The position numbers and the translations under genes are program-made. A stretch of DNA of 64,000 bases. Source: Thermoanaerobaculia bacterium (GTDB lineage Bacteria > Acidobacteriota > Thermoanaerobaculia > Gp7-AA8). Location of the stretch: NCBI GenBank assembly GCA_036009105.1, contig DASYMJ010000043.1:25658-89657 (forward strand), written 5' to 3'. Position 1 is the stretch's first letter. Every line of letters starts with the position of its first letter. This document shows, in pieces, positions 1,866-54,634 of the stretch. The notes below the pieces were generated by a model, which searched no databases, had not been told where the DNA came from, and worked only from the letters and a program-made list of their open reading frames with translations.

Positions 1866-1931
1866 GTAGGGCCGGCTCTCAGCCGGCCCGTCATCAACCG
1901 ATAGTTGGGCCGGCTGGAGAGCCGGCCCTAC
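1866..1931. repeat. Inverted pair of GGGCCGGCTCTCAGCCGGCCC hairpin units (REP-like) between convergent genes
   Basis: The sequence is GTAGGGCCGGCTCTCAGCCGGCCC-17nt-GGGCCGGCTGGAGAGCCGGCCCTAC. Each unit is itself a palindrome and the two units are inverted. There is no T-tract. Confidence 0.7.
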
Positions 1932-11242: not shown

Positions 11243-11325
11243 GAATTGAGAATTGAGAATTGAGAATTGAAAAGAAGGCGAAGTCACCAGCCCATTTTCA
11301 ATTTTCAATTTTCAATTTTCAATTC
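11243..11325. repeat. Perfect palindrome of GAATTGA heptamer arrays at a divergent promoter
   Basis: The sequence is gaattgagaattgagaattgagaattgaaaag...ttttcaattttcaattttcaattttcaattc. Four heptamers on each arm are reverse-complementary. Confidence 0.75.
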
Positions 11326-11390
11326 GTGTATCCCCGCCCTGACGCCTATCCGCACGGCCATCCCGGGCGTCTGCAAGGAAAGACACTATT

Positions 11391-11427
11391 GCGTGTCTAC
11401 CTTTTTCCATCTAATATCCGCGACCCA
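11391..11427. promoter_or_regulatory. Candidate operator palindrome AGACAC-N6-GTGTCT, next to a TAATAT -10-like hexamer upstream of the NRPS operon
   Basis: The palindrome aAGACACtattgcGTGTCTac sits in a comparatively AT-rich 275-nt intergenic region. TAATAT lies about 14 nt downstream of it. Confidence 0.3.
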
Positions 11428-11487
11428 GGCCGAAACAGAAGGTTAACAGGACATTTCCCAGTAACTACTTGCAAAAAGGGACGAAGC

Positions 11488-12978
11488 GTGAACCGGACTC
11501 GCGATTCTCTTCCCGTTGCGGTAGGTGCTGTCCTGACGATTCCGGTCGTCGCGGCAGCGCTTTCCGCTTTCGGGCTTGTACCTTCCGCCGCGCTGCTCGT
11601 CGCGGCGTTGCTGGTGAGCGCCGCGTTCTTCGCGGCGCGCGAGCGCATCGCGCAGGCGCTGCAACTCCCGGAGGGAGGAAGCGCACCCGTCGTGTTCGCG
11701 CTGATCGGCGTGCTCGCGGCGGCCCGGCTGTGGGGCATGAGCTGGTTCATGATGGATTCCGCCCACGCGGAAGCCTCGGTCCTCTGGTTCGACCCCTTCT
11801 ACATGCGGCACAGCTGCTTCTCCTCTCTCTACCTCTCGGCCAGGCTGGCCATGGAGCACGCGCCGAACCCGTACCAGTCGGAGCTCTATGACACGGACCT
11901 CTACAAGTCCTTCCTCGGCCGCTTCACCATGGACGAGTTCCTCTATCCCTCCCCCTTCATGCTCCTGCCCCGCATCGGCCTCGCCTTCACGAAGTCGTTC
12001 ATGACGCTGCGCACCGCGTGGTTCGCCCTCGAGGCGGCCACGTTCGGCGCCGCGGTGGTGATCGTGGCGAAGTGGATCGGCGGCGAAGAGGGGAAGCGCG
12101 CGCTCTTCCTCGCGCCGGCGCTCTTCCTGGCCACGCCCGTCCTGCTCACCCTGCAGATCGGCAACTTCCAGCTGGCGGCCATCGCCATGACGATGCTCGC
12201 CCTCGTCGCCTTCGACTCGCAGCACAACGCCACCGGCGGCGCGCTCCTCGGCTTCGCCCTCTTCAAGATCTTCCCCGGCATCGTCCTCATCCCCCTGGCC
12301 ATCCAGCGCCGCTGGAAGGCCGTGGTCTGGACGGCCGGTTTCTCCGCGCTCTACACCGCGCTCTCCGTGGCCTGGCTGGGACAGACGCCGCTGCGCCGGT
12401 TCCTCGGCTACGGCCTGCCCCGGATCACGAAAGGGGAGGCTTGGTCCTTTCTCGAGCTGGACGTCCCGATCATCCACGAGGTGGTGGCCATCAACCAGGG
12501 CATCCCCGGCCTCGCCCTCAAGCTCCACGACCTCGGCGTAAACCTGGCCATGCACGACGCCGTGCAGAAGGTCTCGCTGGTCTACAGCGTGATCATGCTC
12601 GCGTTGGCGGTGGTGGTGGGTTTCCGCCTCGCGAAAACGGAAGACAAGCTCACCCGGGCCCAGCTCTGGATCGCCCTCATCGCCCTCGCCGCGCTGCGCA
12701 GCCCGTTCGTGCCGGACACCTACGCGCTGCCGCCCGTGCTCTGGCTGTGGAGCCTGGTGATGCCGCGCTTCTGGCACAAGCCGCTCGGTATCGCGTTGCT
12801 CTGGATTCCGCTCTCCACCGTCCTCCCCTTCGAAGGGCCGCTGGCACCGCTCGGCAACACGCGCCTCTTCCTCGGGTTCATCGTCCAGCTCTTCGCGCTC
12901 GCCTTCACCGGCGCGCTCTTCCTCCAGCGTGCCCCCCGGCCCGCCCCCGACCTGATTCAGGAGCCCGTCCAGTCATGA
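11488..12978 (+). CDS. Polytopic GT-C-like membrane protein (DUF2029/GT87 mannosyltransferase-like)
   Basis: At least 10 TM helices, with FALFKIFPGIVLIPL-type motifs seen in DUF2029/GT87 proteins. Start is placed at GTG 11488 behind an AAGGGA RBS. The track ORF start at 11260 reads through the (GAATTGA)n palindrome. The stop overlaps the next gene's ATG (ATGA). Confidence 0.5.
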   Translation: MNRTRDSLPVAVGAVLTIPVVAAALSAFGLVPSAALLVAALLVSAAFFAARERIAQALQLPEGGSAPVVFALIGVLAAARLWGMSWFMMDSAHAEASVLWFDPFYMRHSCFSSLYLSARLAMEHAPNPYQSELYDTDLYKSFLGRFTMDEFLYPSPFMLLPRIGLAFTKSFMTLRTAWFALEAATFGAAVVIVAKWIGGEEGKRALFLAPALFLATPVLLTLQIGNFQLAAIAMTMLALVAFDSQHNATGGALLGFALFKIFPGIVLIPLAIQRRWKAVVWTAGFSALYTALSVAWLGQTPLRRFLGYGLPRITKGEAWSFLELDVPIIHEVVAINQGIPGLALKLHDLGVNLAMHDAVQKVSLVYSVIMLALAVVVGFRLAKTEDKLTRAQLWIALIALAALRSPFVPDTYALPPVLWLWSLVMPRFWHKPLGIALLWIPLSTVLPFEGPLAPLGNTRLFLGFIVQLFALAFTGALFLQRAPRPAPDLIQEPVQS

Positions 12979-15233
12979 CCAGAAACCTGCGAGGCGCGCT
13001 CGGCGCGCTCCTGCTCCTTTCCGCCGCGAGCCTGCAGGCGGACGTGCCGCCGCCGCCCGACTCGAGCGCCGTCCTGCGCGTGCCGCGCCTGGCGGTGCAG
13101 CCGCACCTGCAGGACATCATCCCCTCCGGCGCCGCGGGCATGGCGCGGGTGACCGACCTGCGCCAGAACACCCCCAAGGACGGCGAGCCGGTCACCCTCG
13201 GCACCGCCGTCTACCTCGGCTACGACGACACGAACCTCTACGTCGCCTTCGTCTGCCAGGACGAGCCGGACAAGGTGCGGGCCCGCATCACGCGGCGGGA
13301 AGACATCTTCGGCGACGAAGGGGTGCAGATCTTCCTCGACACGTTCCACGACAAGCAGCGCGCGTACGTCTTCGCCGCGAATCCGTTCGGCGTGCAGCTG
13401 GACGGCATCACCACCGAGGGGCAGGGCTACGACTTCAACTTCGACACGCTCTGGTATTCGGAGGGGCGGATCACGAAGGACGGGTTCGCGGTCTTGATGA
13501 CCATCCCGTTCAAGAGCCTGCGCTTCGCGCCGGGGGCGACGCAGCGATGGGGCGTCTCGCTGAGCCGGATCATTCCGCGCAAGAACGAGTTCGTCTACTG
13601 GCCGTGGATCACCGACCGGGTGGAGGGCTTCGTCCCCCAGTTCGCCACCCTGGAGATCGACGAAGCGATCTCGCCCGGCCGCAACTACCAGTTCATCCCG
13701 TACTCGGTGCTGACGCATTCGCGCCTGCTGGAGCCGGGTGGGGCGGGGGCGCTGCGGCCGGCCGGCTACAACAACACCACGCCCGGGCGGGTGGGGCTCG
13801 ATGGCAAGTTCGTGTTGCGCGACTCGCTCGCCGCCGACCTGACCGTCAATCCCGATTTCTCCGAGGTGGAATCGGATGAGCCTCAGGTGATCGTCAACCA
13901 GCGCTTCGAGGTGCTCTTCCCGGAGAAGAGGCCGTTCTTCCTGGAGAACGCCGGCTTCTTCGGGACGCCGATGAACCTCTTCTTCTCCCGCCGTATCGCC
14001 GATCCGCGCATCGGCGCGCGGCTCACCGGACGGGTAGGCAGATGGGCGCTCGGCGGCCTGGCCATCGATGACCGGGAAGGTGGGCTGGGCCTGCCCACCG
14101 ACCATCCCCAGTTCGGGCAGCGGGCGAACATCGGCGTGGCGCGCATGCAGCGCGACTTCGGGCGTCAGTCGAACGCCGGCTTCCTCCTCACCAGCCGGGA
14201 CATCGGCGGCGTCTCCAACCGGGTGGCGGCGTTCGACAGCCGGGTCAAGATCAACGAGAACTGGACGGCGACGGGACAGCTCGGCAAGAGCTGGAACCGG
14301 GGCGGCTTCTTCGGCGACGTCAACGGCACGGCCGGCTACTTCGACGTCAACCGCTCCGGCCGCGTCTTCAACTACGACGGCCAGTACCGCGACATCAGCC
14401 GCGACTTCGTCAGCGACCTGGGGTTCATCCCCCGCACCGACATCCGCCAGACCGAGCATACGGCGAGCCTCAAGCGCTGGGCGGAAGGGACGAAGCTCTT
14501 CAGCTACGGCCCGAGCGTGACCGGCCTGGCCACGTGGGACCACGCGGGCGAGCTGCAGGACTGGCTCGGCTCCGGCTCCTTCAACTTCAACTGGGTGGGC
14601 GGCACGTCGCTCACCCTGACCAGCGACCAGGGGTACGAGCGCTTCGCCGGCCTCGATTTCCGCAAGCACCTGGAGACGGTGTCGGCGCGCACGGAGTGGT
14701 GGAAGTGGCTGACCGCTTCGCTGAGCTACTCGCAGGGGACGGCGGTGAACTACTTTCCCGCCCCCGGCGTCGACCCCTTCCTGGGCGACCGCAGGCAGGT
14801 GGTGGTCGGGTTCACGCTCAGCCCCTTCTCCCGCCTGCGCCTCGACGAGACGCTGATCTACGACGACCTCTACACGCGCAACGCGGTGGCCGGGGTCGAT
14901 GCGGGGAGCCTCGTCTTCCGCAACCCGATCTCGCGGACCAAGGTGAACATGCAGTTCAACCGCTACCTCGCATTGCGGTTGATCGTCGACACGCACGCCA
15001 TCACGCCGGACGAGTCGCTCGTCCTGCTGCCGCGGACGAAGCACGTCACGGGCGATGTGCTCTTCAGCTACGTCCTCAATCCGGGGACCGTGCTCTACCT
15101 CGGCTACTCCGACAACTACGACAACGTCGCGCTTCTGAACGGGCCGCCTTCCCAGGTGGTGGCCACCCATTCGGCGCTCAACCCGACGGCGCGGCAGTAC
15201 TTCATGAAGGTGAGCTACCTGCTCCGGTTCTGA
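12975..15233 (+). CDS. DUF5916/CBM9-like outer-membrane protein
   Basis: The signal peptide is MTRNLRGALGALLLLSAASLQA. The N-terminal CBM9/DOMON-like segment reads LYVAFVCQDEPDKVRARITRREDIFGDEGVQIFLDTFHD. The long beta-rich C-terminus ends in KVSYLLRF, with a terminal Phe typical of OM barrels. The track ORF 12018.. over-extends in frame; the ATG at 12975 overlaps the upstream stop. Confidence 0.6.
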   Translation: MTRNLRGALGALLLLSAASLQADVPPPPDSSAVLRVPRLAVQPHLQDIIPSGAAGMARVTDLRQNTPKDGEPVTLGTAVYLGYDDTNLYVAFVCQDEPDKVRARITRREDIFGDEGVQIFLDTFHDKQRAYVFAANPFGVQLDGITTEGQGYDFNFDTLWYSEGRITKDGFAVLMTIPFKSLRFAPGATQRWGVSLSRIIPRKNEFVYWPWITDRVEGFVPQFATLEIDEAISPGRNYQFIPYSVLTHSRLLEPGGAGALRPAGYNNTTPGRVGLDGKFVLRDSLAADLTVNPDFSEVESDEPQVIVNQRFEVLFPEKRPFFLENAGFFGTPMNLFFSRRIADPRIGARLTGRVGRWALGGLAIDDREGGLGLPTDHPQFGQRANIGVARMQRDFGRQSNAGFLLTSRDIGGVSNRVAAFDSRVKINENWTATGQLGKSWNRGGFFGDVNGTAGYFDVNRSGRVFNYDGQYRDISRDFVSDLGFIPRTDIRQTEHTASLKRWAEGTKLFSYGPSVTGLATWDHAGELQDWLGSGSFNFNWVGGTSLTLTSDQGYERFAGLDFRKHLETVSARTEWWKWLTASLSYSQGTAVNYFPAPGVDPFLGDRRQVVVGFTLSPFSRLRLDETLIYDDLYTRNAVAGVDAGSLVFRNPISRTKVNMQFNRYLALRLIVDTHAITPDESLVLLPRTKHVTGDVLFSYVLNPGTVLYLGYSDNYDNVALLNGPPSQVVATHSALNPTARQYFMKVSYLLRF

Positions 15234-15235
15234 CC

Positions 15236-18200
15236 ATGACCGACAACACCGAAAAGCTGGCCGGACTCTCCAGCGCCAAGCGGGCGCTGCTCGAAAAACT
15301 CGTGGCCGAGCGGCGCGCGGCGGCGGGAGAGGTGCGTCCCCGCCCGCGCCCGGAGCGGGTGCCGCTCTCGTTCGGACAGGAGCGCCTGTGGGTGGTGGAG
15401 CAGCTCGCGCCGGGCAGCGCCGCGTACAACGAGCCGGTCGTGTTGTGGCTCTCCGGCGCGCTCGATGTGGGCGCATTGGAGCGCGCGATCAACGAGGTGG
15501 TGCGGCGGCACGAGTCGTTGCGCACGGCGGCCCCTTCGGAAGGGGGGCGTCCGTTCCAGCGCATCGCTCCGTCTTTGACGGTGCCGTTGGTGCTCGCAGA
15601 GGCGACGTCGGATGAAGGAGCGCTGCAGATGGCCAGCAGTGTGATCGCCGCCTCCTTCGATCTCGCCCGCGGGCCGCTCGTGCGCGCGTTGCTGGTGCGG
15701 GTGGAGGCCGAACGGCACCTGCTCGCCATCGCCGTCCACCATCTCCTGATCGACGGCTGGTCGATCAACGTCGTCCTCGGCGAGCTGGCCCGCCTCTACA
15801 ACGGCGAGGCGCTGCCCGAGCCGCCGCTGCAGTACGCCGACTACGCGCTCTGGCAGCGCGAGTGGCTGGACGGCGAGCGCATGGACCGCCAGCTCGCGCA
15901 CTGGCGCGAGCACCTGGAGGGTTGCCCTTCCACCCTCGACCTCCCGGCCGACCGCCCCCGCCCGCCCGTGCAGAGCTTCAAGGGCTCCGTGGTACGGCAC
16001 CTCATCCCGCCCGACCTGTACGAGGCGATGGAGCAGTTCAGCCGGCGGGAGAACGTCACCCCGTTCATGACGCTCTTCGCCGCCTGGACCACGCTGCTGC
16101 ACCGCCTGACCGGGCAGGAGGATCTGCCGCTGGGCGTGGGCCTGGCCAACCGCCCGCGCGCCGAGCTGGAGTCGATCGTCGGCTTCTTCGTGAACACGCT
16201 CGTGCTGCGCACGCGCTTCGACGGCGCGCCGACGTTCCTCGACCTGCTGGCCCGCGTGCGCGAGACGACGCTCGGCGCGCAGGCCAACCAGGATGCGCCG
16301 CTCAGCCGCGTCCTGGAGTCGATGAAGCTCGACCGCGCGGCGAGCCACATGCCCTTCGTGCAGGTGATGCTCTTCTTCCAGAACTACGCGCAGACGGCGC
16401 TGGCCATGAACGGCCTGCGCGTCTCGCGCGTGCCGCTCGACCTCGTTCATCCCGGCTCCGCGCAGACGGACATCGCGCTCTTCGTCAACCAGGATGCGAC
16501 GGGCGAGCTGCTCTTCCAGTACAGCACCGACCTGTTCGACCGGGAGACCATCGAACGGCTCGCCGGGAACTTTGTGGTGCTGCTGCGCGCGGCCATTGCG
16601 GATGCGTCGCAACCGATCGCGCAGCTGCCGCTGCTCACCGAGGAAGAGCGCGTGCAGCTGGCAAAGTGGAATGACACGCGCGTGCCGTATCACCACGGGC
16701 CGCTCATTTCGCTCGTGCAGGCGGCGAGCGACAAACCGGCCGTCACGTTCCGCGGCCGCACCCTGACCTATGCCGAGTTGCGCGCCAGAGCCTCCGCGCT
16801 GGCGGACGAGCTGCGCGCGAGCGGTGTGAAAGCGGGCGACCTGGTGGGCCTCTTCGTGGAGCGCTCGCTGGAGATGGTGATCGGCATCGTGGCCATCCTG
16901 GAGGCGGGCGGCGCGTACGTGCCGCTCGATCCGTCGTACCCCGCCGAGCGGCTCGCCTTCATGCTCGGCGACGCCGGCGCGAAGGTGGTGGTGACCCAGC
17001 GCGAGCTGCGCGAGCAGGTGCCGGTGCAGGGTGTGGAAGTGGTGATCGCGGACGCGGAAAATGTGGGGGCCGGCTTCAGCCGGCCCGGGCGGGCTGAAGC
17101 CCGCCCCCACGTTGACGACCTCGCCTACGTCATCTTCACCTCCGGCTCCACCGGCCGGCCCAAAGGCGTGCAGATCACGCAGCGCTCCGCGGCGAACCTG
17201 CTGCAGTCCGTGGCGCGAGAACCGGGCATGAACGCGGGCGACACCATCTGCGCCGTCTCCACGCTCTCCTTCGACATCGCCCTGCTGGAGCTCGTGCTGC
17301 CGCTCACCGTCGGCGCGCACATCCTCCTGGCCGACCGCGACACCGTGCGCGACGGCAACGCGCTGGGCCGCCTCGTCGCGAACAACGACGTCACCATCAT
17401 GCAGGCCACCCCGGCCACCTGGCGCATGCTCCTCGACATCGGCTGGCGCGGGAAGCCGGGCCTGAAGATCATCTCCACCGGCGAGGCGCTGCCGCGCGAG
17501 CTGGCCGAGCGCCTCCTGCCCTGCGGCCGCGAGCTGTGGAACCTCTACGGCCCCACCGAGACCACGGTCTACTCCGCCCTCGGGCGCATCGAGTCCGGCA
17601 GCGGCCCCATTTCCATCGGCAGGCCGGTGGCGAACACGCAGATCCACATCGTCGACCGCAACCTGCAGCTCCTCCCGCCCGGCGTCCCCGGCGAGCTGCT
17701 CATCGGCGGCGACGGCCTGGCCCGCGGCTACCTCGGGCGTCCCGACCTCACCGCCGAAAAGTTCATCCCCGATCCGTTCTCCGATCAGCCTGAGGCGCGC
17801 CTCTATCGCGCCGGCGACCTCGCCACGTGGCGGCGCGACGGCACCCTGGAAGTCCTCGGCCGGATGGATCACCAGGTCAAGCTGCGCGGCTTCCGCATCG
17901 AGCTCGGCGAGATCGAAGCCGTGCTGGCCCAGCATGCAGATGTCGAGCAGGCGGTCGTGCACTGCCGTGAAGACCGGCCCGGCGACAAGCGCCTCGTGGC
18001 CTACACCACGGGCGGCGCAAGCACGGACGCGCTGCGCGAGCACCTCCGCAAGTCGCTCCCCGACTACATGATCCCCGCCGCCTTCGTGGCGCTGGAGCAG
18101 TTTCCCCTCACGCCGAACGGCAAGGTGAACCGCCATGCATTGCCGGCACCCGAGGCCTTTGCGGGGGCGGCTGTGGAACCTCCGCAGACGCGGGAGGAGC

Positions 18201-18502
18201 GGGAGATGGCCACGCTGTGGTCCGACCTCCTCGGCCGCCGCGACATCGGACGCAACGACAACTTCTTCGACCTCGGCGGCCACTCCCTCCTCGCCATGCA
18301 GATGCTGGCCCGGCTGGAGAAGGCGACCGGCGTCGAAGTTCCCCTGCGCGTCCTGTTCGACGTGCCCACCGTCGCCACGCTGGCCCGGCACGTGGCCGCC
18401 GTGCGCACGGCCAGCCTGGAGACGGAGAACCTCGACGAGCTGCTGGCCCAGCTGGAGGGGCTCTCCGACGACGAGGCGCTCACACGGAGCCAGCTGTCAT
18501 GA
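15236..18502 (+). CDS. Non-ribosomal peptide synthetase, module 1 (C-A-PCP)
   Basis: C domain motifs are [13 protein letters not shown] and [9 protein letters not shown]. A domain motifs are [87 protein letters not shown] and NGKV. The PCP motif is [13 protein letters not shown]. The real ATG is 3 nt after the DUF5916 stop, and the stop overlaps the NRPS2 start (ATGA). Confidence 0.9.
   Translation: [1088 protein letters not shown]
17063..17110. repeat. 48-nt GC-rich double-hairpin element inserted in frame in the NRPS1 A domain (codes [18 protein letters not shown])
   Basis: GTGGGGGCCGGCTTCAGCCGGCCCGGGCGGGCTGAAGCCCGCCCCCAC is a near-perfect palindrome. It is related to the GGGCCGGCT...AGCCGGCCC family. 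It sits just upstream of the A3 motif. Confidence 0.7.
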
Positions 18503-21500
18503 GTGATACCACGCAACGCATCGCCGACCTCTCGCCGCAGAAGCGCGCGCTCCTGCTCCAGCAGCTGGCGAAGGAGAAGGCCGCGCGCGGCCGCATCGTC
18601 CGCCGCGAGCGCCCCGACCCCCTCCCCCCCTCCTTCGCCCAGCAGCGCCTCTGGCTCCTCGACCAGCTCGAGCCGGGCTCGGCGAGCTACAACGTGCCGG
18701 CCGGCGCCTGGATGCGCGGCAAGCTCGATCTCGACATCCTGCGCCGCTGCCTGGAAGAGCTGGTGCGGCGTCACGAGGCGCTGCGCACCACCGTGCCTTC
18801 TTCGGACGGCCGGCCGCACCAGGTCATCGCCGCGCAGGGGCGCGTCGAGCTGCCGCTGTATCACGCCTCCTCGCGCGCCGAAGCGCGGGCCATCGGGCAG
18901 AAGGAGGCGACGCGGCCGTTCGATCTGGCCAAGGGGCCGCTCATGCGCACGCTGGTGGTGCGCCTGTCCGAGGAGGAGCATCTCCTCGTCTTCAACTTCC
19001 ATCACATCGCCGTGGACGGCTGGTCGTTCAGCGTCCTCTATCGCGAGCTCGGCGCGCTTTACGGGGCGTTCCTGCACGGCCGCCCGTCGCCGTTGCCGGA
19101 GCTGCCCATCCAGTACGCCGACTTTGCGCTCTGGCAGCGCGAGTGGCTGCAGGGCGACGTGCTGAAAGGCCAGCTCGACTACTGGACCGAGCGGCTGAGC
19201 GGCAACATCCCGGTGCTGGAGCTGCCCGGCGACCGCCCCCGGCCGGCGAAGCAGTCCTACCGCGGGGACGTGGTGCGCGTGGTCATCCCCGCGGAGCTGG
19301 TGGCCGCCGCCGCGCAGCGCAGCCGCGAGGAAGGCATCACCCTCTTCATGACCTTCCTCGCCGCGTTGAAGACGCTGCTCTTCCGTTACTCCGGACAGAC
19401 CGACGTCGTGGTCGGCTCCGGCATCGCCGGCCGCAACCGGGAAGAGCTGGAGCCGCTGGTCGGCTACTTCGTCAACACGCTCGCCTTGCGCACGGACCTC
19501 TCCGGCAATCCGACGTTCCGCGAGCTGCTGGCCCGCATCCGGGAGACGACCCTCGGCGCGTACGCGCATCAGGACCTGCCGGTGGAGCGGCTGATCGAGG
19601 AGCTCCACGTGGAGCGCTCCCTCGGCCACTCGCCGCTCTTCCAGGTGATGGTCTTCTTCCAGAACATGCCGCATCAGAAGCTGGAGCTGCCCGGCATCAC
19701 GCTCGAGCCGCTGCAGATGGACGAGGTCAACTCCGAGACTGCGCGCACCGATCTGGCGCTGTTCGTCGAGCGGCATGACGACGGCCTGGCCATCCTCTTC
19801 GAGTACAGCACCGACCTGTTCGACGAGGAGACCGTGCGCGCGTTCGGCGAGCACCTGGTGGTGCTGCTGCGCGCCGCGGTGGCGAATCCCGATACGAAGA
19901 TCGGCGAGCTGCCGCTGCTGACCGATGCCGAGCGGCACACGCTGCTCGTTTCCCGTACCGCGAACGCGGCGCCGGTTCCGTCCGCCACGCTCTCCTCGCT
20001 GTTCGAGCAGCAGGTGGCGCGCACGCTGGAGGCGACGGCGCTGATCTTCCCCGAGCGCCGGCTGACGTATCGCGAGCTGGACGAGCGGGCGAACGGCTTC
20101 GCCGCCGAGCTGCAGTCGCGAGGCGCGAAGCCGGGCGAGCTGGTCGGCATCTACACCGACCGCGGCCCGGAGATGGCGATCGCTCTGCTGGGCATCCTCA
20201 AGTCGGGCGCGGCCTACCTGCCGCTCGACCCCACCTATCCGCCCGACCGACTCGCCTTCATGCTCTCGGACACCGGCGCGCGGCTGGTCGCGACGCAGAA
20301 GCACCTGCGCGATGAGGTGCCGTCGAAGGATGTGGAGCTGGTCTTCGTGGACGCATGTCATCCTGAGGGCAGCGAAGGATCCCCCGGCTCAGGCGGCGCA
20401 CGTGCCGGGAGATCCTTCGCCGTCTCCGCGGCTCAGGATGACACCCCGCGCGCCACGCCCGACGACACCGCCTACGTCATCTTCACCTCCGGCTCCACCG
20501 GCAAGCCCAAGGGCGTGCAGATCCCTCATCGCGGCGCGGTGAACTTTCTCCTGGCCATGCTGGAGGCGCCGGGGCTCACGCCGGCGGACACCGTCTGCGC
20601 CATCACCACCCTCTCCTTCGACATCTCCGTCCTGGAGCTCCTCCTCCCGCTGATCATCGGCGCGAAGGCGGCGGTCAGCGACCGGGCCACGGCCACGGAC
20701 GGCAAGCGCCTCGCGCAGTTCATCAGGGACAGCGGCTCCACCGTCGTCCAGGCCACGCCCGCCTCCTGGCGCATGCTCCTCGACGCCGGCTGGGAAGGCG
20801 TGCCCGGGCTGAAGATCCTCTGCGGCGGCGAGCCGCTGCCGCGCGACCTGGCCGACCTCCTCCTGGCCCGGGTGGGGGAGCTGTGGAATGTCTACGGCCC
20901 TACCGAGACCACGGTCTGGTCGGTGCTCGACCGCGTGCTGCCGGACCAGCCGATCACCATCGGCAAGCCGATCCGCAACATGCGCATGTACGTCGCCGAC
21001 GCGAACATGCAGCTCGTCCCGGACGGCGTCCCCGGCGAGCTCCTCATCGGCGGCCTCGGCCTCGGCCACGGCTACGTCAACCGCCCCGAGCTCACCGCCG
21101 ACCGCTTCATCCCCGATCCGTTCAGCGGCATCGAAGGGGCGCGCCTTTACCGCAGCGGCGACATCGCCCGCTGGAGACGAGACGGCCGCCTGGAGATCCT
21201 CGGCCGCTCCGACGGCCAGGTGAAGCTGCGCGGCTTCCGCATCGAGCTGGGCGAGATCGAAGGCGCCCTGCGCGAGCACGCCGCGGTGCGCCAGGTGGTC
21301 GTCGTGCTGCGCGAGGACCGGCCGGGCGACAAGCGCCTCGTGGCCTACGTGGTTCCTCACCAGGCCGCGCCGGCCACGAACGAGCTCCGCGCGCATCTCC
21401 GCGCCATGCTCCCCGACTACATGATCCCCAGCGCGTTCGTCGTGCTGGAGAAGCTGCCCATCTCCCCCAACGGCAAGGTGGACCGCCGCGCGCTGCCTAT

Positions 21501-21834
21501 GCCCGAGCTCTCGGACATCAACGAAGTGGCCGCTCCCGTTGCGCCGCGCACGGCGGAAGAGGAGCAGCTGGCCGAGATCTGGGCCGACGTCCTCGGCCTC
21601 CCCGCGGTCGGCATCGACGACGACTTTTTCGTGCTCGGCGGCCACTCATTGCTGGCCACGCAGCTCATCGCCCGCGTCGGCCGCACGTTCGGCGTCGACC
21701 TGCCGCTGCGCCGGCTCTTCGAAGCGCCGACCGTCGCCTCGTTCGCCGCGGTGCTCGTGACCGAGATGATGTCGACCCTCAACGCGCTGAGCGAGGACGA
21801 GCTGCAGGCGCTCCTGGGAGGGCAGGCTCCTTGA
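18499..21834 (+). CDS. Non-ribosomal peptide synthetase, module 2 (C-A-PCP)
   Basis: C domain motifs are [13 protein letters not shown] and [10 protein letters not shown]. A domain motifs are [51 protein letters not shown] and NGKVDR. The PCP motif is [13 protein letters not shown]. Confidence 0.9.
   Translation: [1111 protein letters not shown]
20357..20442. repeat. MITE-like hairpin element (GTCATCCTGAG...CGAAGGATCC family) inserted in frame in the NRPS2 A domain
   Basis: The element is gtcatcctgagggcagcgaaggatcc-ccc-ggctcaggcggcgcacgtgccgggagatccttcgccgtctccgcggctcaggatgac, with terminal inverted repeats. It encodes [30 protein letters not shown] immediately upstream of the A3 motif. Confidence 0.75.
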
Positions 21835-21845
21835 CCGCCGAGTCG

Positions 21846-24800
21846 ATGGCCGCGCGCCTGGCGCGCCTCACCCCGCAGGAGCGCGCCCGGCTCCTGCGCA
21901 GCGCCGCCGCTCGCGCGACGGCCGTTCCCCGCCGCCCGGCCGGGCAGAACGAGCTGCCGCTCTCGCCCGCGCAGCAGCGGATGTGGTTCCTGGAACAGCT
22001 GCAGCCGGGCGCGTATCACTCCTACGACTTCACGCGCCTCATCGGTCCGGTCGATGTGGCGCGCCTCGACGCCGCCTTCCGGGAGATCGTCCGCCGCCAC
22101 GAGGCGCTGCGCACATCGTTCGTCAGCGTGGACGGCACGCCGCGGCAGCTCGTGCACGATGAGGTGCCGTTCTCCATCGCCTCCGTCACCGTGGAGGATC
22201 CCGAGGGTTTCGCGGACGCGGAGACCCTGCGCCCGTTCGATCTCACCCGGGCGCCTTTGCTGCGCGTGACGCTCGTGAACGGGCAACTGCTGCTGGTCAC
22301 GCTGCATCACATCATCTCGGACGGCTGGTCGCTCGGCGTCCTCGATCAGGAGCTGCGCGCGCTGTACGCCGGTGCGTCGCTGCCGGAGCTGCCGGTGCAG
22401 TTCGGCGACGTCGTGTTGTGGCAGCAGTCGCGGACCGGGGAAGGCGTGGACTGGTGGAAGCAGACGCTGAGCGGCGTTCCCGACGTGCTCGACCTGCCCG
22501 CCGACCACCCGCGGCCGGCCGTGCAATCCTTCCGCGGCGCGCGCGTCACGCACACGGTTTCGCCTTCGCTTCTCGCGGAGCTGAACGAGCTCGCCCAGCG
22601 CGAACACGTCACGCTGTTCATGCTCCTGGTCGCCGCCTTCGACGTGCTGCTCTACCGCCACACCGGCCAGAGCGAGTTCGCCGTCGGGACGCCGGTCGCG
22701 AACCGCACGCCGGAGACCGAGCCGCTGATCGGCCTCTTCATCAACACCATCGCCCTGCGGGCGAACCTGAGCGACGACCCATCGTTCCGCGAGCTGCTCG
22801 GGCGCGTGCGCGAGACGTCCCTCGAAGCGTTCGCCCATCAGGACGTGCCGTTCGACCGTGTGGTCGACGCCCTCGCATTACCGCGCAACGCCAATCGCAC
22901 GCCGCTCTACCAGACCATGATCGTCCTCGGCGCGGGGCAGGGGAGCTACGCGCCGCTGGGCGACATCGAGCGGGTGCCGTATCACCCCCACTCCGCCTCC
23001 GCGCGCTTCGACCTGACGCTGTCGATGGCCATCGACGAGACCGGCCTGGTCTGCCTCTTCGACTACGCGGCCGATCTGTTCGATCCGGCCACCGTCGAGG
23101 CCTTCGCGCGCCGCTACGAGATGCTGCTGCGCGGCGCGGCGGCTGATCCGAATACGGCGGTGTCTCGGCTGCCGCTGATGGATGCCGCCGAGCGCGGTGT
23201 CATCCTGAGCCGCGCGGCCGGCGAAGGATCCGTACCGCTCCTGCGCGATACGACGCTCCACGCACTTTTCCAGGAACAGGCCGCCCGCACGCCCGACACG
23301 CCCGCGGTGAACGACGTGACGTACGGGGAGCTCGACCGCTGGTCGGACGAGATCGCCGCCACCATCGACACCCACCTCGTCCCCTTCCTCGCCGACCGCA
23401 CGCCGGCCGCGATCGCGCAACTGCTCGGCATCCTCAAGGCGGGCGCCGCCTACCTCCCCATCGATCCCGCCACGCCGCGGGAGCGCCTCGACTGGCTCGT
23501 CGCGGACAGCAAGTCGGTGGCGCCGGGCGACAACGCATACGTGATCTACACCTCCGGTTCCACCGGCACGCCGAAAGGCGTCGTGGTCAGCCACCGCTCC
23601 GCGGTCAACCTGACCCTGGCTTTCGCGCAAAGCCATCAGTTTGCAGGTCACCGCCTGCTGATGATCCCGCCGCTGCACTTCGACGCCTCGGTGGGCGACG
23701 TCTTCCCCGCCCTCGCCACCGGCGCGACGCTCATCCTCCATCCGTCGCCCGCCGACCTCGACGCCCGCGCGCTGGCCCGCTTCTGCAACGAGCAGGGCGT
23801 CACCGCCATCGACGCGCCGGCCGCGCTCTGGCGCCGCTGGGCCGCGGAGTGGCAGCCCATCCCCGCGCTGCGCCTGATGATGGTGGGCGGTGAGTCGGTG
23901 CCGGTGGATGAAGTGCGCCGCTTCGCGCGCCTGACGAACAACCAGGTCCGCTTCGTCAACCACTACGGCCCGACCGAAGCGACGGTCTGCGCCACGACCT
24001 ATCACACCGTCGACGCGAGCGAGTGCACCACGACCGAGCTCCCCATCGGCAAGCCGATCGCGAACGTCTCCGCATACGTCCTCGACCAGCACCTCCAGCC
24101 GGTGCCGCGGGGCATCGCGGGCGAGCTGTACATCGGCGGCGCCGGCGTGGCGCGCTATCACGGCCGGGAAGAGTTCCTCCCCAACCCGTTCGGCGAGGGC
24201 CGCCTCTATCGCACCGGCGACCTGGCCCGCCGCCTCGCCTCGGGCGACCTCCTCTTCCTCGGCCGCGCCGACCGGCAGATCAAGCTGCGCGGCTTCCGCA
24301 TCGAGCCGGGGGAGATCGAGGCCGCCATCCTCGCCCACGCCGGCATCCGCGCTGCGATCGTGATCAAGCGCGAGGAGCGGCTCGTCGCCTATGTCGTCGG
24401 CGAGACGGAGCTGCAGTTGCACGACCGCCTGCCGGAGTACATGGTGCCGTCCGCGATCGTGCGCCTCGAGGCGCTCCCGCTGACGAGCAACGGCAAGGTG
24501 GACCTCAACGCGTTGCCCGCTCCCCCCCGCACGACCACCAGTTCCCGCGCGCCCCGCAACGAGACGGAGCGCGAGCTGCTGCGCATCTGGTGCGAGGTGT
24601 TGCAGGCAGACGGCCTCGGCATCGACGACTTCTTCGCGCACGGCGGCGACTCCCTCCGCACCATGCCCCTGGTGTTCAAGGTGCGGGAGCGCTTCGGCGC
24701 CGACCTCCCGCTCAGCTCCGTCTTCCGCGCCCCGACCGTGGCGCGCTTCGCCGCGCTCCTCACGCACGGAGCGCAGGCGGACGATCTGGAATCGAAAATC

Positions 24801-25886
24801 GGCACGTTCCGGGCGCCGGCCATCCGGCGCGCAAACATGCCGCCGAAGAACGTCCTCATCACCGGCGCCACCGGCTTCCTCGGCGCGTTCCTCCTCGACG
24901 AGCTGCAGCGCTCCACGAACGCCACCATCTACGCGCTCGTCCGCGCGGCGAACAAGGCAGACGCGATGCGTCGCATCCGGGAGAACCTCGCTTCTTACGG
25001 TCTGACGCCGGATGAGAAACGCATCGTTCCTCTGCTCGGAGACCTGGCCGAGCCGGGTCTCGGCATCACCGAGAACCTGGACGCCATCGACGTGATCTAT
25101 CACAACGGCGGCGCGGTGAACTTCATCGCGCCGTACGAGCGCCTCGCCGCGGCGAACGTGGACGGCACCCGCACGGTGCTGGCCATGGGCCGGCCGGTGC
25201 ACGTCGTCTCCACCCTGGGCGTCCATTTCACCAAGCCGCGCATCGGCCAAGTGGTGACCGAACAGGATCCCCTGCCGCCCGGCAAAGACATCCTGGGCGG
25301 CTACAACGAGACGAAGTGGGTCGCCGACCGCGTGGCCCAGCTGGCCCGCGAGGCCGGCGTGCCGGTCTCCATCCATCGCCCGGCGCGCATCACCGGCGAC
25401 AGCCGCACTGGCGCGCTCAACCCGGCCGATCTCTTTTACAGCTGGATCAAAGGCTGCGTGCAGCTGGGCAGCTTCCCGGACGACGCGCCGCTGCTGAACA
25501 TGGCGCCGGTCGACCACATCGCCCGCTCCATCGTCGCAATCTCCCTGCACATCGAGCAACCGGCCGACTACCACTACTTCAACAACCGCATGCTGCCGCT
25601 GGAGACGCTCGTCTCCACGCTCCGCCGCCGCGGCTTCGAAGCCTCCATCAAGCCGTACCGGCAGTGGATCGAACAGCTGCGCCACGCGCCGGAGAACCCG
25701 CTGGCGAAGTACCTGGCTCTGATGGAAGAGCCGGACCAGGGCGAGCCGGTGTTCGACTGCACGCGCACCGAAAACGCGCTGGCCCGGCTCGGCATCCTCT
25801 GTCCGGCGGCGGATGAAGCCCTGCTCGGCCTCTACCTCGACCAGCTCCTGCCCGAGCCGGCCATCGCCATGAAAGGACACCCATGA
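21846..25886 (+). CDS. Non-ribosomal peptide synthetase, module 3 with terminal thioester reductase (C-A-PCP-R)
   Basis: C domain motifs are [13 protein letters not shown] and [10 protein letters not shown]. A domain motifs are [81 protein letters not shown] and NGKVDL. The PCP motif is [12 protein letters not shown]. The R domain has [15 protein letters not shown] and GGYNETKW (Y...K). The start could instead be TTG 21831, overlapping the NRPS2 stop. The stop overlaps the MFS gene's ATG. Confidence 0.85.
   Translation: [1346 protein letters not shown]
23199..23250. repeat. Half-copy (left arm plus part of centre) of the MITE-like GTCATCCTGAG element in the NRPS3 C-A linker
   Basis: gtcatcctgagccgcgcggccggcgaaggatccgtaccgctcctgcgcg matches the left half of the full element at 29315-29410. 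It encodes [17 protein letters not shown]. Confidence 0.6.
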
Positions 25887-27196
25887 CCCGCCGCCGCGCA
25901 TTTCTCTGGATCTGGATCGGGCAGCTGATCTCCGTGATCGGCTCGCGCCTTTCCACGTTCGCCGTCGGCATCTGGGTCCTGCAGAAGACCGGCTCGACGA
26001 CGCAGTACGCCTTCATCTTCATCTGCATGGCCGTGCCGGCCCTGCTCCTCGCGCCGTTCGCCGGCGCGCTCGTCGACCGCTGGGACCGGCGCAAGGTGAT
26101 GATCGCCGCCGACGCGCTGGCCGCCTTCACCGTGCTCGGCCTCGGCATGCTGCTCTACCTCGACGCGCTCGAGCTGTGGCAGATCTACGTCGCCGCCGGC
26201 CTGCAGGCGGTCGCCACCGGCTTCCAGATCCCCGCCTACATGGCCAGCATCCCGCTGCTCGTGCCGAAGGAGCAGCTCGCCCGCGCGAACGGCATGGTGC
26301 AGACCGCGTTTGCCGCCGCGCAGATCGTCGGCCCCGCGCTGGCAGGCGTGCTGGTGAGCACCATCTCGCTCTACGGCGTCCTGTTCGTCGACTTCGTCAC
26401 GTTCGTGGCCGGCATCATCGCCCTCCTCGTGGTCGACGTCCCGCGCCCCGCGGCCGGCGAGCACGAAGAGAAGGCGCCAGCGCTGTGGCAGGAGGCGGCG
26501 GAAGGCTTCCGCTTCGTCCGCGAGCGGGGCGGCCTCCTCGGCCTGCTCACCCTCTTCGGTTTCACGAACTTCCTCTTCGGCATCGTCAGCATCCTCATCA
26601 CGCCGATGGTCCTCTCCTTCACGAACGCCGCGGGCCTCGGCATGCAGATGTCGATCGGCGGCTGCGGCCTGCTCCTGGGCGGCGTCCTGATGAGCGCCTG
26701 GGGCGGCCCGAAGCGGCGCATCCACGGCGTGCTCGCCTCCACCGTGTTCGCCGGCCTGATGCTGGCCATGCACGGCCTGCGCGCGGACATCTGGTTCGTC
26801 TCGGCGATGGGCTTCTTCTTCTTCATCTCCCTGCCGATCATGAACGCCTCCCAGGATTCGATCTGGCAGACCAAGGTGCCGGCCGCGCTGCAGGGGCGCT
26901 GCTTCGCCATCCAGCGCGTTTTGTCCGAGGCGGCGATGCCGATCGGTTTCTGCATCGCGGGCCCGCTGGCGGATCGCGTGTTCGAGCCGCTCCTGAGGCC
27001 GGGCGGTCCGCTGGCCGATTCCGTCGGCCGCGTGATCGGCGTCGGCCCCGGACGCGGCATCGCCCTGATCTTCATCGTCTCGGGCTTGACCATGGCGCTG
27101 GCCGGACTGGTCGGCTACGCCATGCGCGGGCTGCGCAACGTCGAGACCGATCTTGCCGACGCGCCGGTCGAGCCGGCGCCCGCTGTCGCTGCATGA
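25883..27196 (+). CDS. MFS transporter (EntS/macrolide-efflux-like), probable product exporter
   Basis: 437 aa with 12 predicted TM helices. The N-terminus MTRRRAFLWIWIGQLISVIGSRLSTFAVGIWVL is typical of the enterobactin-exporter EntS family. Its start overlaps the NRPS3 stop. Confidence 0.8.
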   Translation: MTRRRAFLWIWIGQLISVIGSRLSTFAVGIWVLQKTGSTTQYAFIFICMAVPALLLAPFAGALVDRWDRRKVMIAADALAAFTVLGLGMLLYLDALELWQIYVAAGLQAVATGFQIPAYMASIPLLVPKEQLARANGMVQTAFAAAQIVGPALAGVLVSTISLYGVLFVDFVTFVAGIIALLVVDVPRPAAGEHEEKAPALWQEAAEGFRFVRERGGLLGLLTLFGFTNFLFGIVSILITPMVLSFTNAAGLGMQMSIGGCGLLLGGVLMSAWGGPKRRIHGVLASTVFAGLMLAMHGLRADIWFVSAMGFFFFISLPIMNASQDSIWQTKVPAALQGRCFAIQRVLSEAAMPIGFCIAGPLADRVFEPLLRPGGPLADSVGRVIGVGPGRGIALIFIVSGLTMALAGLVGYAMRGLRNVETDLADAPVEPAPAVAA

Positions 27197-27210
27197 GTCC
27201 CGGAGAATCT

Positions 27211-27990
27211 ATGAGCGCAGACGACACTCACGAAAAAGCAATGGCCGCCGGTTGCCCCCACGCCACGCGCGCCGCGAGCCTTTCCATCCGTTCCGAGTCC
27301 CCCTCGGCGCCGGTCTCGCCCGAGCTTTTCACCATCAACCAGGTGGAGACGCTGATGGCGCCCGAGCATCCGCTGGCCGTCACCGCCAAATGGATGCGCC
27401 GTTTCCTGGCCCGGCCGCATCGCGAGCTCGGCCGCCCCGGCCCGGTCTGCCCCTTCGTCCCCGGCGCCATCGTGCAGGACACCATCTGGATGGCCGACTG
27501 CTCCCTCGGGCGCGGCGACCGGCAGGCCATCATCGAGATCATCGGCCTCTTCCGCGACCTCTTCCTCAACCTAGAGCCGAAGGGGGGCGATGCCGCGGCC
27601 TGGAAGGCGATGGTCATCGTCTTCCCGAACGTAGCCATCGAAGACGCGGATGTGATCGACCAGGTGCAGTCGGAGCTGAAAGCGCGCTTCGTCGACGCCG
27701 GCCTCATGATCGGCGAGTTCCACGAGCGGAACGAGAGCCCCGGCCTGCGCAACGACAACTTCCGCCCGCTGCGCAGCCCCATCCCGGCCCTGGCCATCCG
27801 CCACATGGTGGAGACCGACCTGCCGTTCCTCTACCGCACCCTCTATCCGCCGCCGTTGCGCGCGGAGTTCATCCGCTCCTATCTGCGCCGCCTGGGCGGC
27901 ACGATCAGCCGCAACAACTTCGACGCGGCGCTCGACGCGCTCGTGCTGGCGGAGATCGCCATCCGCACTCCGGAAGAGGTGACGACCTGA
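27211..27990 (+). CDS. Conserved hypothetical protein (259 aa) co-transcribed between the MFS exporter and KMO
   Basis: The ATG at 27211 lies behind a GGAG RBS. The track ORF 26176.. over-extends in frame. I recognise no known catalytic motif. Sequence landmarks are PGPVCPFVPGAIVQDTIWMADCSLGRGDRQAIIEIIGLF and FHERNESPGLRNDNFRPLRSPIPALAIRHMVETDLPF. Confidence 0.55.
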   Translation: MSADDTHEKAMAAGCPHATRAASLSIRSESPSAPVSPELFTINQVETLMAPEHPLAVTAKWMRRFLARPHRELGRPGPVCPFVPGAIVQDTIWMADCSLGRGDRQAIIEIIGLFRDLFLNLEPKGGDAAAWKAMVIVFPNVAIEDADVIDQVQSELKARFVDAGLMIGEFHERNESPGLRNDNFRPLRSPIPALAIRHMVETDLPFLYRTLYPPPLRAEFIRSYLRRLGGTISRNNFDAALDALVLAEIAIRTPEEVTT

Positions 27991-27992
27991 CC

Positions 27993-29306: not shown

Positions 29307-29314
29307 GGTACCGT

Positions 29315-29410
29315 GTCATCCTGAGCCGCGGAGACGGCGAAGGATCCGTACCGATCTTGCGCCGCGCCTGAAGGTTCGGATCCTTCGTCCTCTTCGGGAC
29401 TCAGGATGAC
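29315..29410. repeat. Full-length MITE-like hairpin element (GTCATCCTGAG...CGAAGGATCC family)
   Basis: The left end is gtcatcctgagccgcggagacggcgaaggatccgtaccgatcttgcgccgcgcctgaaggttcggatccttcgtcctcttcgggactcaggatgac, with a variable centre. The element is 96 nt, with 26-30 nt terminal inverted repeats. Confidence 0.8.
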
Positions 29411-29414
29411 ACCC

Positions 29415-37707: not shown

Positions 37708-37795
37708 GAGGCGGAGCGTAGCACGTGTGTTGGCCGGCGGCGGGCCGCTGCTCCACGCCCGCTGCCCGCCGAAAAGTGCCCTATCATCCCCGACC

Positions 37796-39235
37796 GTGTT
37801 TGCATCACTTCTCCTCGCACTCCTGGTGAGCGCGCCACCGGATCTGAAATGGGGCGGTGACTCGGAGGGGGGCGCTCCGTTCGTGGAGGCCGACCCGAAC
37901 GATCCGGCCGTCGTGCGCGGCTTCGACGTGGAGGTGGCGGAGGAGATCGCGAAGGGCCTCGGCCGCAGGCCGCATTTCGTGCAGGTGGCATTCACGGCCA
38001 TCGATCAGTCGGTGGCGCGCGGCGATTTCGACATCGGGATGAGCGGCGTGGAGGACACCCCGCCCCGCCGCGCGGCCATGGCGGCGACCATTCCGTACTT
38101 CGAGTTCCACGAGGTGCTCACCACGCGCGCGGCCGACCGCGGCCGCTTCCGCACCCTGGACGACCTCCGCGGCCACCGCGTCGGCACCCTCGGCGGCACG
38201 ATCGCTTACGACCGCCTGCTCGAGGCGCAGAAGGACGGCGTGGTGCTCGTCTCGTATGACGATGACGTGCACCCCTACGAGGACCTGGCCCAGGGCCGCC
38301 TCGATGCCGTGCTCCTCGACAACATCATCGCCGCCCGCTCCATGCGCCGCGTGCCCGGCCTCTTCATGCAGCCCAAGCCGGTGATGACCGGCCACTACGT
38401 CGCCGTGCTGGCCAGGGAGAACGGCGCCTTGCGCGATCAGGTGGACGCCATCCTGCGCGCGCGGATGCGCGACGGGACGCTGGAGCGGATCTATCGCAAG
38501 TGGCAGATCTGGGATGAGTACCAGCCCCGCTTTTTCGCCTCTGTGCTCGCGCCGCCCAAAAACGTAGGGCCGGCTCTCCAGCCGGCCCCTCGCGTCGACA
38601 AGACGCAGCTCACGCTGGCCTACATCCCCGCCCTCCTCCGCGCGTCGGTCATCACCATCGTCCTCTCCTGCCTCGCCATGGCGCTGGCCATCCTGGTCGG
38701 CGTCCTCATCGCCAGCGGCCGGGTCTACGGCGGCACGCTGCTGCGCGGCGTGCTCGCCACCTACGTGGAAATCGTGCGCGGCACGCCGGTGCTGCTGCAG
38801 CTCTTCGTTTTGTATTACGGCCTCTCCGCCGTCATCCGCCTCCCCGCCTTCATCGCCGCCCTTCTCGGCCTCGGCCTGAACTACGCCGCGTACGAGAGCG
38901 AGATCTATCGCGGCGCGCTGGAGGCGGTCTCGCGCGGCCAGCTCGAGGCGGCGCGCACGCTCGGCCTCACCGAGTCGCAGGTCTTCCGCCTGGTGCGCGG
39001 GCCGCAGGCGTTCCGCCTCGCTCTCGCGCCGATGACGAACGACTTCGTGGCGCTGCTCAAGGACTCCTCGCTCGTGTCGGTGATCACCGTTGTCGAGCTG
39101 ACCAAGCAGACGCAGATCTTCGCCGCGAACATCGGCAGCTGGGTGGTGCCCGGCATCCTCTGCGCGGCGCTCTATCTGTTGATGTCGTTGCCGCTCTCGC
39201 GCGTTGCGCGGCGGCTGGAGGAGCGGTGGCGATGA
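37796..39235 (+). CDS. Amino-acid ABC transporter, fused periplasmic substrate-binding and permease protein (PAAT family)
   Basis: The N-terminal SBP domain has VAFTAIDQSVARGDFDIGMSGV. The C-terminal His/Gln-type permease has the EAA-like loop GLNYAAYESEIYRGALEAVSRGQLEAARTLGL. The junction NVGPALQPAP is encoded by a GGGCCGGCTCTCCAGCCGGCCC hairpin unit. Start is placed at GTG 37796 (signal-like VFASLLLALLVSA); the track start at 37727 lies 20 nt from the divergent M28 start. Confidence 0.75.
   Translation: MFASLLLALLVSAPPDLKWGGDSEGGAPFVEADPNDPAVVRGFDVEVAEEIAKGLGRRPHFVQVAFTAIDQSVARGDFDIGMSGVEDTPPRRAAMAATIPYFEFHEVLTTRAADRGRFRTLDDLRGHRVGTLGGTIAYDRLLEAQKDGVVLVSYDDDVHPYEDLAQGRLDAVLLDNIIAARSMRRVPGLFMQPKPVMTGHYVAVLARENGALRDQVDAILRARMRDGTLERIYRKWQIWDEYQPRFFASVLAPPKNVGPALQPAPRVDKTQLTLAYIPALLRASVITIVLSCLAMALAILVGVLIASGRVYGGTLLRGVLATYVEIVRGTPVLLQLFVLYYGLSAVIRLPAFIAALLGLGLNYAAYESEIYRGALEAVSRGQLEAARTLGLTESQVFRLVRGPQAFRLALAPMTNDFVALLKDSSLVSVITVVELTKQTQIFAANIGSWVVPGILCAALYLLMSLPLSRVARRLEERWR
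38564..38589. repeat. Single GGGCCGGCTCTCCAGCCGGCCC hairpin unit inside the ABC SBP-permease coding sequence
   Basis: The sequence gtagggccggctctccagccggcccc is read in frame as VGPALQPAP at the SBP/permease domain boundary. Confidence 0.65.
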
Positions 39236-54569: not shown

Positions 54570-54634
54570 GTGGGGCCGGCTCTCAGCCGGCCCAGCTATC
54601 CGTTGACGACGGGCCGGCTGAGAGCCGGCCCCAC
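54570..54634. repeat. Inverted pair of GGGCCGGCTCTCAGCCGGCCC hairpin units between convergent genes
   Basis: The sequence is GTGGGGCCGGCTCTCAGCCGGCCC-agctatccgttgacgac-GGGCCGGCTGAGAGCCGGCCCCAC. It has the same architecture as 1866-1931. Confidence 0.75.

Follow-up and report, generated by a model that had tools for sequence, protein, structure and literature searches.

A translated REP doublet in the loop before the A3 motif of a Thermoanaerobaculia peptide synthetase

NRPS1 and the palindrome in its adenylation domain

We analyzed a 64-kb stretch of DNA from a Thermoanaerobaculia bacterium (contig DASYMJ010000043.1; hereafter the window; G+C about 69-70%) that carries three nonribosomal peptide synthetase (NRPS) genes, the third of which ends in a reductase domain. 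The first gene, NRPS1, encodes a condensation-adenylation-thiolation (C-A-T) module, and its protein is 100% identical to P0001, annotated from a Thermoanaerobaculia (Acidobacteriota) metagenome-assembled genome (MAG). A first-pass annotation had described a 48-nt palindrome inside the adenylation (A) domain of this gene, which is the subject of the present work. The sequence is present as quoted at 17063-17110. Being in frame with NRPS1, it is read as (EN)VGAGFSRPGRAEARPH, and VDDLAYVIFTSGSTGRPKG follows.

The arms of the palindrome, previously taken to be perfect, pair at 22 of 24 positions. Their two mismatches fall at arm positions 9 and 20 and make up for one another inside each arm, so that either arm alone forms a perfect 8-bp hairpin with a loop of 4 nt. 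The second arm reads GGGCGGGC-TGAA-GCCCGCCC on the plus strand; compared with the first as a unit, it differs by one compensated base pair. Both arms have the make-up of a GTAG-type repetitive extragenic palindromic (REP) unit, i.e., an imperfect palindrome of ~20-40 nt, one end of which carries a conserved GT[AG]G head. Two such GTGG/GTAG-headed hairpins in inverted orientation give the anatomy of a REP doublet, or REPIN, as defined earlier (PMC3116915, PMC3733652), and the doublet folds into a single long hairpin with arms of 27+27 nt and no spacer. This longer inverted repeat (17060-17113, AAT...GTT) is 89% complementary, its outer pairing being weaker than that of the core.

The codons at its boundaries are uncommon in NRPS1, where AAT makes up 2 of 28 Asn codons and GTT 3 of 87 Val codons, and the G+C content of third codon positions (GC3) is 0.92. 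These rare codons fit the A/T-rich ends of the repeat family described below (AAACGT.../...ACGTTT). The family ends suggest a mobile unit of probably ~54-58 nt (17056/17060-17113); the 48 nt delimit the palindrome core and need not coincide with the unit that moves. The statement that the length is a multiple of 3 is correct for the core. Four of the six reading frames of the element are free of stop codons.

The palindrome is far beyond chance. Palindromes with at least 22 of 24 positions paired and a spacer of at most 20 nt were found twice in the window and never in 30 Markov shuffles, and the 20-nt arm hairpin had three matches versus 0.09 expected. The predicted RNA fold of 17040-17135 reaches -59.6 kcal/mol (z = -5.65; none of 200 shuffles folds as well), and the DNA fold gives z = -5.47. 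The strong mRNA secondary structure anticipated within the coding sequence is thus borne out by the predicted fold. A local origin, whether through chance in coding DNA of high G+C or through template-switch "quasi-palindrome correction", could draw on the 70% G+C of the DNA and on the many short inverted repeats nearby. The shuffles argue against it, however, as does the fact that both arms have the head and stem of the family as known from other loci, and we regard such an origin as extremely improbable.

A search of Rfam 15 gave no family at gathering score, and the generic-hairpin matches to microRNA (miRNA) precursor models scored 18-27 bits versus thresholds of 74-168. No intrinsic terminator or attenuator could be recognized either: there is no terminator-like site in 16700-17500, and the hairpin is followed by GTTGACGACC, with no T-run. 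A combined promoter and terminator scan found nothing.

The A domain that hosts the element is a complete NRPS adenylation domain of the ANL superfamily (Pfam match 1.9e-89 over profile positions 7-384 of 384). The location of the element between the A2 and A3 core motifs was confirmed. Past the element the domain continues in frame, and the downstream motifs A3-A10 as well as the serine motif of the carrier domain are intact; the motifs found in the A domain include TSGSTGRPKG, NLYGPTE, GELLIGGDGLARGY, YRAGDL, GRMDHQVKLRGFRIELGEIE, LPDYMIP, and NGKVNR. With the loop excluded, the ratio of nonsynonymous to synonymous substitution (dN/dS) of NRPS1 is 0.175 relative to the orthologue at locus L004 and 0.18 relative to that at locus L001. 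Purifying selection thus acts on the gene in lineages whose loops differ in content. The domain had been called essential, which holds only for the synthetase's own activity.

An AlphaFold2 model of NRPS1 built from 21 orthologues (mean predicted local distance difference test score, pLDDT, 77) places residues 605-628 in a coil between strands 601-604 (VVIA) and 629-635 (LAYVIFT). The pLDDT falls below 50 at residues 612-620, while neighboring blocks score ~79-85. The expected mapping onto a structure model was thus obtained, the element forming a coil of low confidence between two strands, directly before the P-loop. The model matches solved NRPS C-A structures (Txo2, LgrA, and SrfA-C). Given ANL-fold structures in general and the low model confidence, the loop is presumably solvent exposed. 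The palindrome is translated within an intact open reading frame (ORF) and the fold of the product is kept, as with the in-frame palindromic elements of Rickettsia. The enzyme most likely still works with the element in place.

Could the palindrome be an artefact of assembly? The source is a short-read MAG, and no second assembly of exactly this allele was found. On the other hand, the frame runs on undisturbed with every motif in place, comparable elements were met with in several assemblies made independently, and the related NRPS1 element of the L001 lineage has an identical counterpart in L126, an independent metagenome assembly. We consider an artefact scarcely credible.

Table 1. Features of the window referred to in the text (window coordinates)
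Feature	Position	Strand	Description
NRPS1 gene	15236..18502	+	C-A-T module, 1088 aa, host of the element; Pfam Condensation, AMP-binding, AMP-binding_C, PP-binding
A2 core motif coding region	16916..16942	+	YVPLDPSYP
REP unit 1	17063..17086	+	GTGG head and perfect 8-bp hairpin GGGCCGGC-TTCA-GCCGGCCC
REP unit 2, inverted	17087..17110	-	GTGG head and perfect 8-bp hairpin GGGCGGGC-TTCA-GCCCGCCC (minus-strand reading)
Whole palindrome, REP doublet with REPIN-like architecture	17060..17113	.	Core 17063-17110; codes for NRPS1 residues 609-626 (NVGAGFSRPGRAEARPHV)
A3 core motif coding region, P-loop	17120..17167	+	LAYVIFTSGSTGRPKG; begins 6 nt past the palindrome end
Intergenic REP doublet	1866..1931	.	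GTAGGGCCGGCTCTCAGCCGGCCC, 17-nt spacer, then inverted copy
Intergenic REP doublet	54570..54634	.	GTGGGGCCGGCTCTCAGCCGGCCC, 17-nt spacer, inverted copy; 8 nt past the stop codon of an asparagine synthase gene
Single REP unit	38564..38588	+	In frame (NVGPALQPAP), in the linker of an SBP_bac_3/BPD_transp_1 solute-binding/permease fusion ABC-transporter gene (37727-39235)
Copy of the family found in the L004 NRPS1 loop (GAACCCTCTCCCC..GGGGAGAGGGT..GGGGTGAGGGG)	35517-35576	-	In frame as EPSPPGRGEGGPEGGVRG
Palindromic element of ~88 nt with TGTCATCCTGAG...CTCAGGATGACA ends	20356-20443		NRPS2 A2-A3 loop, in frame

The repeat family in the window and in related genomes

A scan of the window for units consisting of a GT[AG]G head and a perfect hairpin gave seven units of the REP family at four loci, which are the NRPS1 doublet and the three further REP loci in Table 1. 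The 17-nt spacers of the two intergenic doublets (1890-1906 and 54594-54610) agree at 14 of 17 positions after one of them is reverse-complemented (ARCTATCSGTTGAYGAC). The spacer 9-mer GTTGACGAC is also found as the 9 nt after the NRPS1 palindrome (17111-17119, coding for VDD), which may be a coincidence or may mark part of the element.

Doublets of the zero-spacer type with TTCA/TGAA loops were found again in four orthologous loci; they lie in NRPS1 of L001, in NRPS2 of L004, in the GT87 gene of both L001 and L004, and at an intergenic junction in L004. The L004 NRPS2 doublet is identical to the window NRPS1 element at 46 of 48 nt and stands in another reading frame. The near identity, together with the high similarity of the flanking A2 and A3 coding sequences among modules, could be taken to mean that the palindromes spread among A domains by gene conversion or recombination between paralogous modules, without transposition. 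But the two copies are in different frames relative to the conserved motifs (VGAGFSRPGRAEARPH versus TWGPASAGPVGLKPDPT), which conversion would not give between aligned paralogues, and members of the family are also found in unrelated genes and between genes. The difference in frame therefore favors separate insertions over conversion between modules. We reject such conversion as the sole route on this ground, and on the whole consider it very unlikely.

A wider pattern scan (GGCTTCAGCC-N8-14-GGCTGAAGCC, one genome per species) matched at least 118 stretches, ~50 of which, among the matches listed, come from Thermoanaerobaculia MAGs; five of these MAGs hold at least 8-13 family copies each. 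The family consensus reads (G)AAACGT[AG]GG-stem-GGCTTCAGCC-stem-(0-4 nt)-stem-GGCTGAAGCC-stem-CC[CT]ACGTTT(C). A GT[AG]S head is present on at least one arm in 61 of 66 sampled lineage copies and on both arms in 44 of them. The family is thus multi-copy and, in the matches listed, mainly extragenic, most copies having no spanning ORF. GTAG-headed doublets with GGCTTCAGCC/GGCTGAAGCC loops were also found in Pseudomonas, Arenimonas, Sulfuricella, and Pirellulales (Planctomycetes), and in the cyanobacteria Nostoc, Dapis, and Okeania (loci from distant phyla include L008, L016, L026, L027, L038, and L074). The loop motif is therefore widely shared by REP families, and the architecture is general to GTAG-type REPs. 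A fuzzy regular-expression search for degenerate REP units missed known copies and was not used.

The MAG that contains L001 also has intergenic tandem arrays of four doublets at ~70-110-nt intervals (L068, 7108-7465; L106, 571-840).

Comparison of orthologous sites points to movement of these elements, as doublets are present in some genomes and absent from others. In the GT87 gene, L004 and L001 carry doublets at different sites, both of which are empty in the window; relative to the window, the filled sites are longer by a net 48 and 45 nt. [quoted passage not shown] In the NRPS2 loop, L004 has a doublet, and the window and L001 have a different element.

The NRPS genes of the window belong to a cluster (~11260-29306) composed of genes for GT87, DUF5916, the three synthetases (C-A-T, C-A-T, and C-A-T-reductase), an MFS transporter, DUF6875, and an FAD monooxygenase, which is syntenic across Thermoanaerobaculia MAGs. 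Among the syntenic NRPS1 orthologues, identity spans 88% to 57%, with Lysobacter at the low end (57%).

The loop before A3 and its occupants

The first-pass annotation had treated the palindrome as an insert, i.e., as length added to the gene, and had suggested an alignment with orthologues that lack it. The comparison does not bear this out. The segment from A2 to A3 is 65 aa long in the window and has the same length in the closest orthologue, which holds a different element. It is likewise 65 aa in L004, where the same interval is filled by 60 nt of unrelated sequence (60 nt in each). The segment measures 68 aa in L001, 63 aa in L005, and 62-64 aa in orthologues without a comparable palindrome (L125 and L127-129). 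When aligned to the solved LgrA module, the NRPS1 loop differs in length by 3 residues only. Since the loop is of the same size where there is no palindrome, native loop codons must have been lost, and the element has replaced the loop rather than been added to it. A simple net insertion is rejected by these comparisons. The net change in the length of the gene, which is about zero, matters more than whether the element is itself a multiple of 3. Insertion followed by deletion under a length constraint is the simplest assumption for the route by which the loop was replaced.

One of the orthologues classed as palindrome-free, L125, has a palindrome with 10-nt arms and GT[AG]G-like ends (ACGTGGCGCCG..CGGCGCTACG), which is too weak to be called a decayed element.

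The same loop is occupied in other genomes. REP doublets fill the pre-A3 loop in NRPS1 of L001, L002, and L005 and in NRPS2 of L002, L004, and L005. A second family, translated as EPSP..GEG..VRG, occupies the L004 NRPS1 loop and, to go by the protein sequence, also that of P0002, the closest orthologue. The window has a copy (matching the 60 nt of the L004 NRPS1 loop at ~48 of 60 nt) in an inositol-monophosphatase-family gene (34984-35967), where it sits between the GEE and WIIDPI motifs. The element in the NRPS2 loop of the window is translated as CHPEGSEGS...SFAVSAAQDDT, which brings the A2-A3 segment of NRPS2 to 81 aa. A member of the same family is present in NRPS2 of L001 (15138-15230), and a fragment in NRPS1 of L124. 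Thus, the loops of orthologous and paralogous A domains contain elements of at least three families in various reading frames. Across five genomes, 15 palindromic elements were counted within the NRPS genes, 10 of them in this loop of ~60 nt, and the window alone has four separate in-frame elements of three families.

An intergenic TGTCATCCTGAG...CTCAGGATGACA copy lies at 29314-29411, right after the FAD-monooxygenase ORF; 75 nt of it are 95% identical to the L001 NRPS2 copy. The A2-A3 segment of NRPS3 is short (window 23451-23576), with 23-24 aa in the window, L001, L002, and L004 compared with 62-65 aa, and reaches 50 aa in L124. None of the NRPS3 segments compared has a palindromic element.

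Occupation of this position extends to a stand-alone AMP-binding enzyme from another Thermoanaerobaculia MAG (L109, 2157-3806, minus strand), in which a family doublet (NVGRASARPGRAEARPT) is located six residues before the YTSGTTG P-loop, structurally the same position as in NRPS1. More generally, 13 of 61 sampled lineage copies are flanked on either side by coding-type GC3 within long ORFs, and nine of these (~15% of the sample) are in ORFs that have clear Pfam domains. In a histidine kinase, a GH43 enzyme, and ArsA the element lies between matched domains; the other Pfam-supported hosts are PriA, an Eco57I-like methylase, a D-Ala-D-Ala ligase, a ParA-like protein, YfhO, and the AMP-binding enzyme.

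The repeated occupation might mean that the pre-P-loop loop of ANL-fold A domains is an actively targeted integration site in Thermoanaerobaculia, and not merely a tolerated one. Targeting may arise from the A3 coding DNA, in which GCC TAC GTC (...CCTACGT...) resembles the element terminus CC[CT]ACGT, and successive elements may then overwrite one another in the loop. No conserved sequence was found past the element ends in the sampled family copies. Head-like hexamers are mildly enriched in the element flanks (13 of 132 flanks versus a background of 3.6%), which decayed neighboring copies could explain. We consider active targeting unlikely; if it were true, mobile DNA would be a routine way to swap a protein loop without changing its length.

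Origin of the element and its relation to known repeats

We conclude, with a probability of about 0.8, that the palindrome is a copy of a non-autonomous REP doublet abundant in the lineage, which landed in a permissive loop and is translated and tolerated there. By analogy with GTAG-type REPs, such elements would take the form of single-stranded hairpins that a REP-associated tyrosine transposase (RAYT; Y1/HUH) encoded elsewhere in the genome moves or copies. One copy would have landed in the DNA for the variable loop directly upstream of the A3 P-loop strand. The allele survived because four of six frames are open and the loop is permissive, and the element would now supply 18 residues of the loop. 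Because native loop codons were lost, the length of the domain stayed normal. The strong mRNA hairpin would be a by-product, the element having no demonstrated function for the host. The simplest reading of the whole is that insertion is frequent across the genome and that copies survive only in permissive loops and linkers.

Several observations weigh against this conclusion. In ~1 Mb of DNA, 64 kb of it from the source genome, a tblastn search that used an approximate E. coli RayT sequence as query found no RAYT/Y1 transposase gene, and the ORFs beside the REP arrays (L068, L106, and L042) are ordinary ones (peptidase, reductase, DapB, GH113, and helicase). Since no transposase was found, mobilization by a RAYT is inferred from the architecture of the family. 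The zero-spacer TTCA-loop form was found only once in the window. Simple insertion should have lengthened the loop by 16-19 aa, and because no such lengthening is seen, at least one further event, the loss of native codons, has to be assumed. Finally, in a base-by-base comparison the window and L001 elements differ by ~17%, while dS of the gene is 0.57; the element has therefore been conserved by something, or the two are separate insertions. As to the earlier designation "selfish hairpin element", a repeated palindromic family with sites filled and empty among genomes is what we observe, and the transposase is the part that was not found.

The low divergence of the element bears on a different explanation, in which the hairpin is a selected mRNA or DNA structure, for instance a pause site that aids folding of the A-domain core or a signal for mRNA stability or processing. 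The very stable predicted fold and the compensated pair by which the arms differ are in keeping with this, as is the recurrence of hairpins in the same loop of NRPS1 and NRPS2 in several lineages. However, the sequence belongs to a mostly intergenic family, the site is held by unrelated families in different frames in different genomes, and many orthologues (L125 and L127-129) have no comparable palindrome; nor is there a T-run terminator or an Rfam family near threshold. A selected structure is, in our view, distinctly unlikely.

Insertion of a tolerated REP doublet has precedents. GTAG REPs and their dimers are mostly intergenic, but a minority lie in frame in known genes, the dimers coding for ~20-30 aa and, it was argued, sitting in linkers or loops (Di Nocera et al., 2013, PMC3733652). 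In that survey most intragenic copies came from Opitutus terrae and Rickettsia conorii, with a stress on DNA replication and repair genes. Like those REPs, the units described here are short and G+C-rich, have a GT[AG]G head, and are often paired in opposite orientation. In contrast to them, the host is an uncultured Thermoanaerobaculia bacterium, one enzyme loop has been used repeatedly by several families, and the element replaces the loop instead of adding to it. REPINs, i.e., REP doublets mobilized by RAYT transposases (Bertels and Rainey, 2011, PMC3116915), share with the present elements the inverted doublet that forms one long hairpin, the compensatory differences that preserve hairpins, and the occurrence in many copies with arrays and singlets. 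Pseudomonas REPINs are extragenic and have 71-110 nt between unit starts, whereas the window element has no spacer, measures ~54 nt, and is translated. The cognate RAYT gene that defines REPINs is the counterpart that was not found in the DNA searched.

Rickettsia palindromic elements (RPEs) are found in frame in many unrelated genes and are translated in a manner compatible with fold and function (summarized in PMC10969869). The window element resembles them as a palindromic repeat translated within an intact gene, but RPEs are ~100-150 bp long, fall into Rickettsia-specific families, and add a peptide segment. From its size and host, the window element is unlikely to belong to an RPE family, and a relationship in sequence is not expected. 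MITEs of Coxiella burnetii are small non-autonomous repeats that make in-frame additions to host ORFs (PMC5896051). MITEs are defined by features derived from insertion sequences, namely terminal inverted repeats and target-site duplications, whereas the filled and empty sites compared here show no duplication. Hence the element belongs to a kind already described, the in-frame intragenic REPs, and no new kind of biological system is revealed. What is new is the host lineage, the zero-spacer form, the replacement of a loop without lengthening, and the occupation of one loop by multiple families.

These findings have some practical bearing. The site before the A3 P-loop is a naturally validated permissive position for NRPS engineering, as unrelated peptides of 16-30 residues have been exchanged at this point and selective constraint was retained. 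In annotation, peptides such as GFSRPGRAEARP, EPSP..GEG..VRG, and HPEGSEGS..AAQDD should be read as translated repeats and not as lineage-specific functional motifs. The usual picture of small palindromic mobile repeats is an intergenic one; in this uncultured soil lineage they are written into proteins, in ~15% of the copies sampled.

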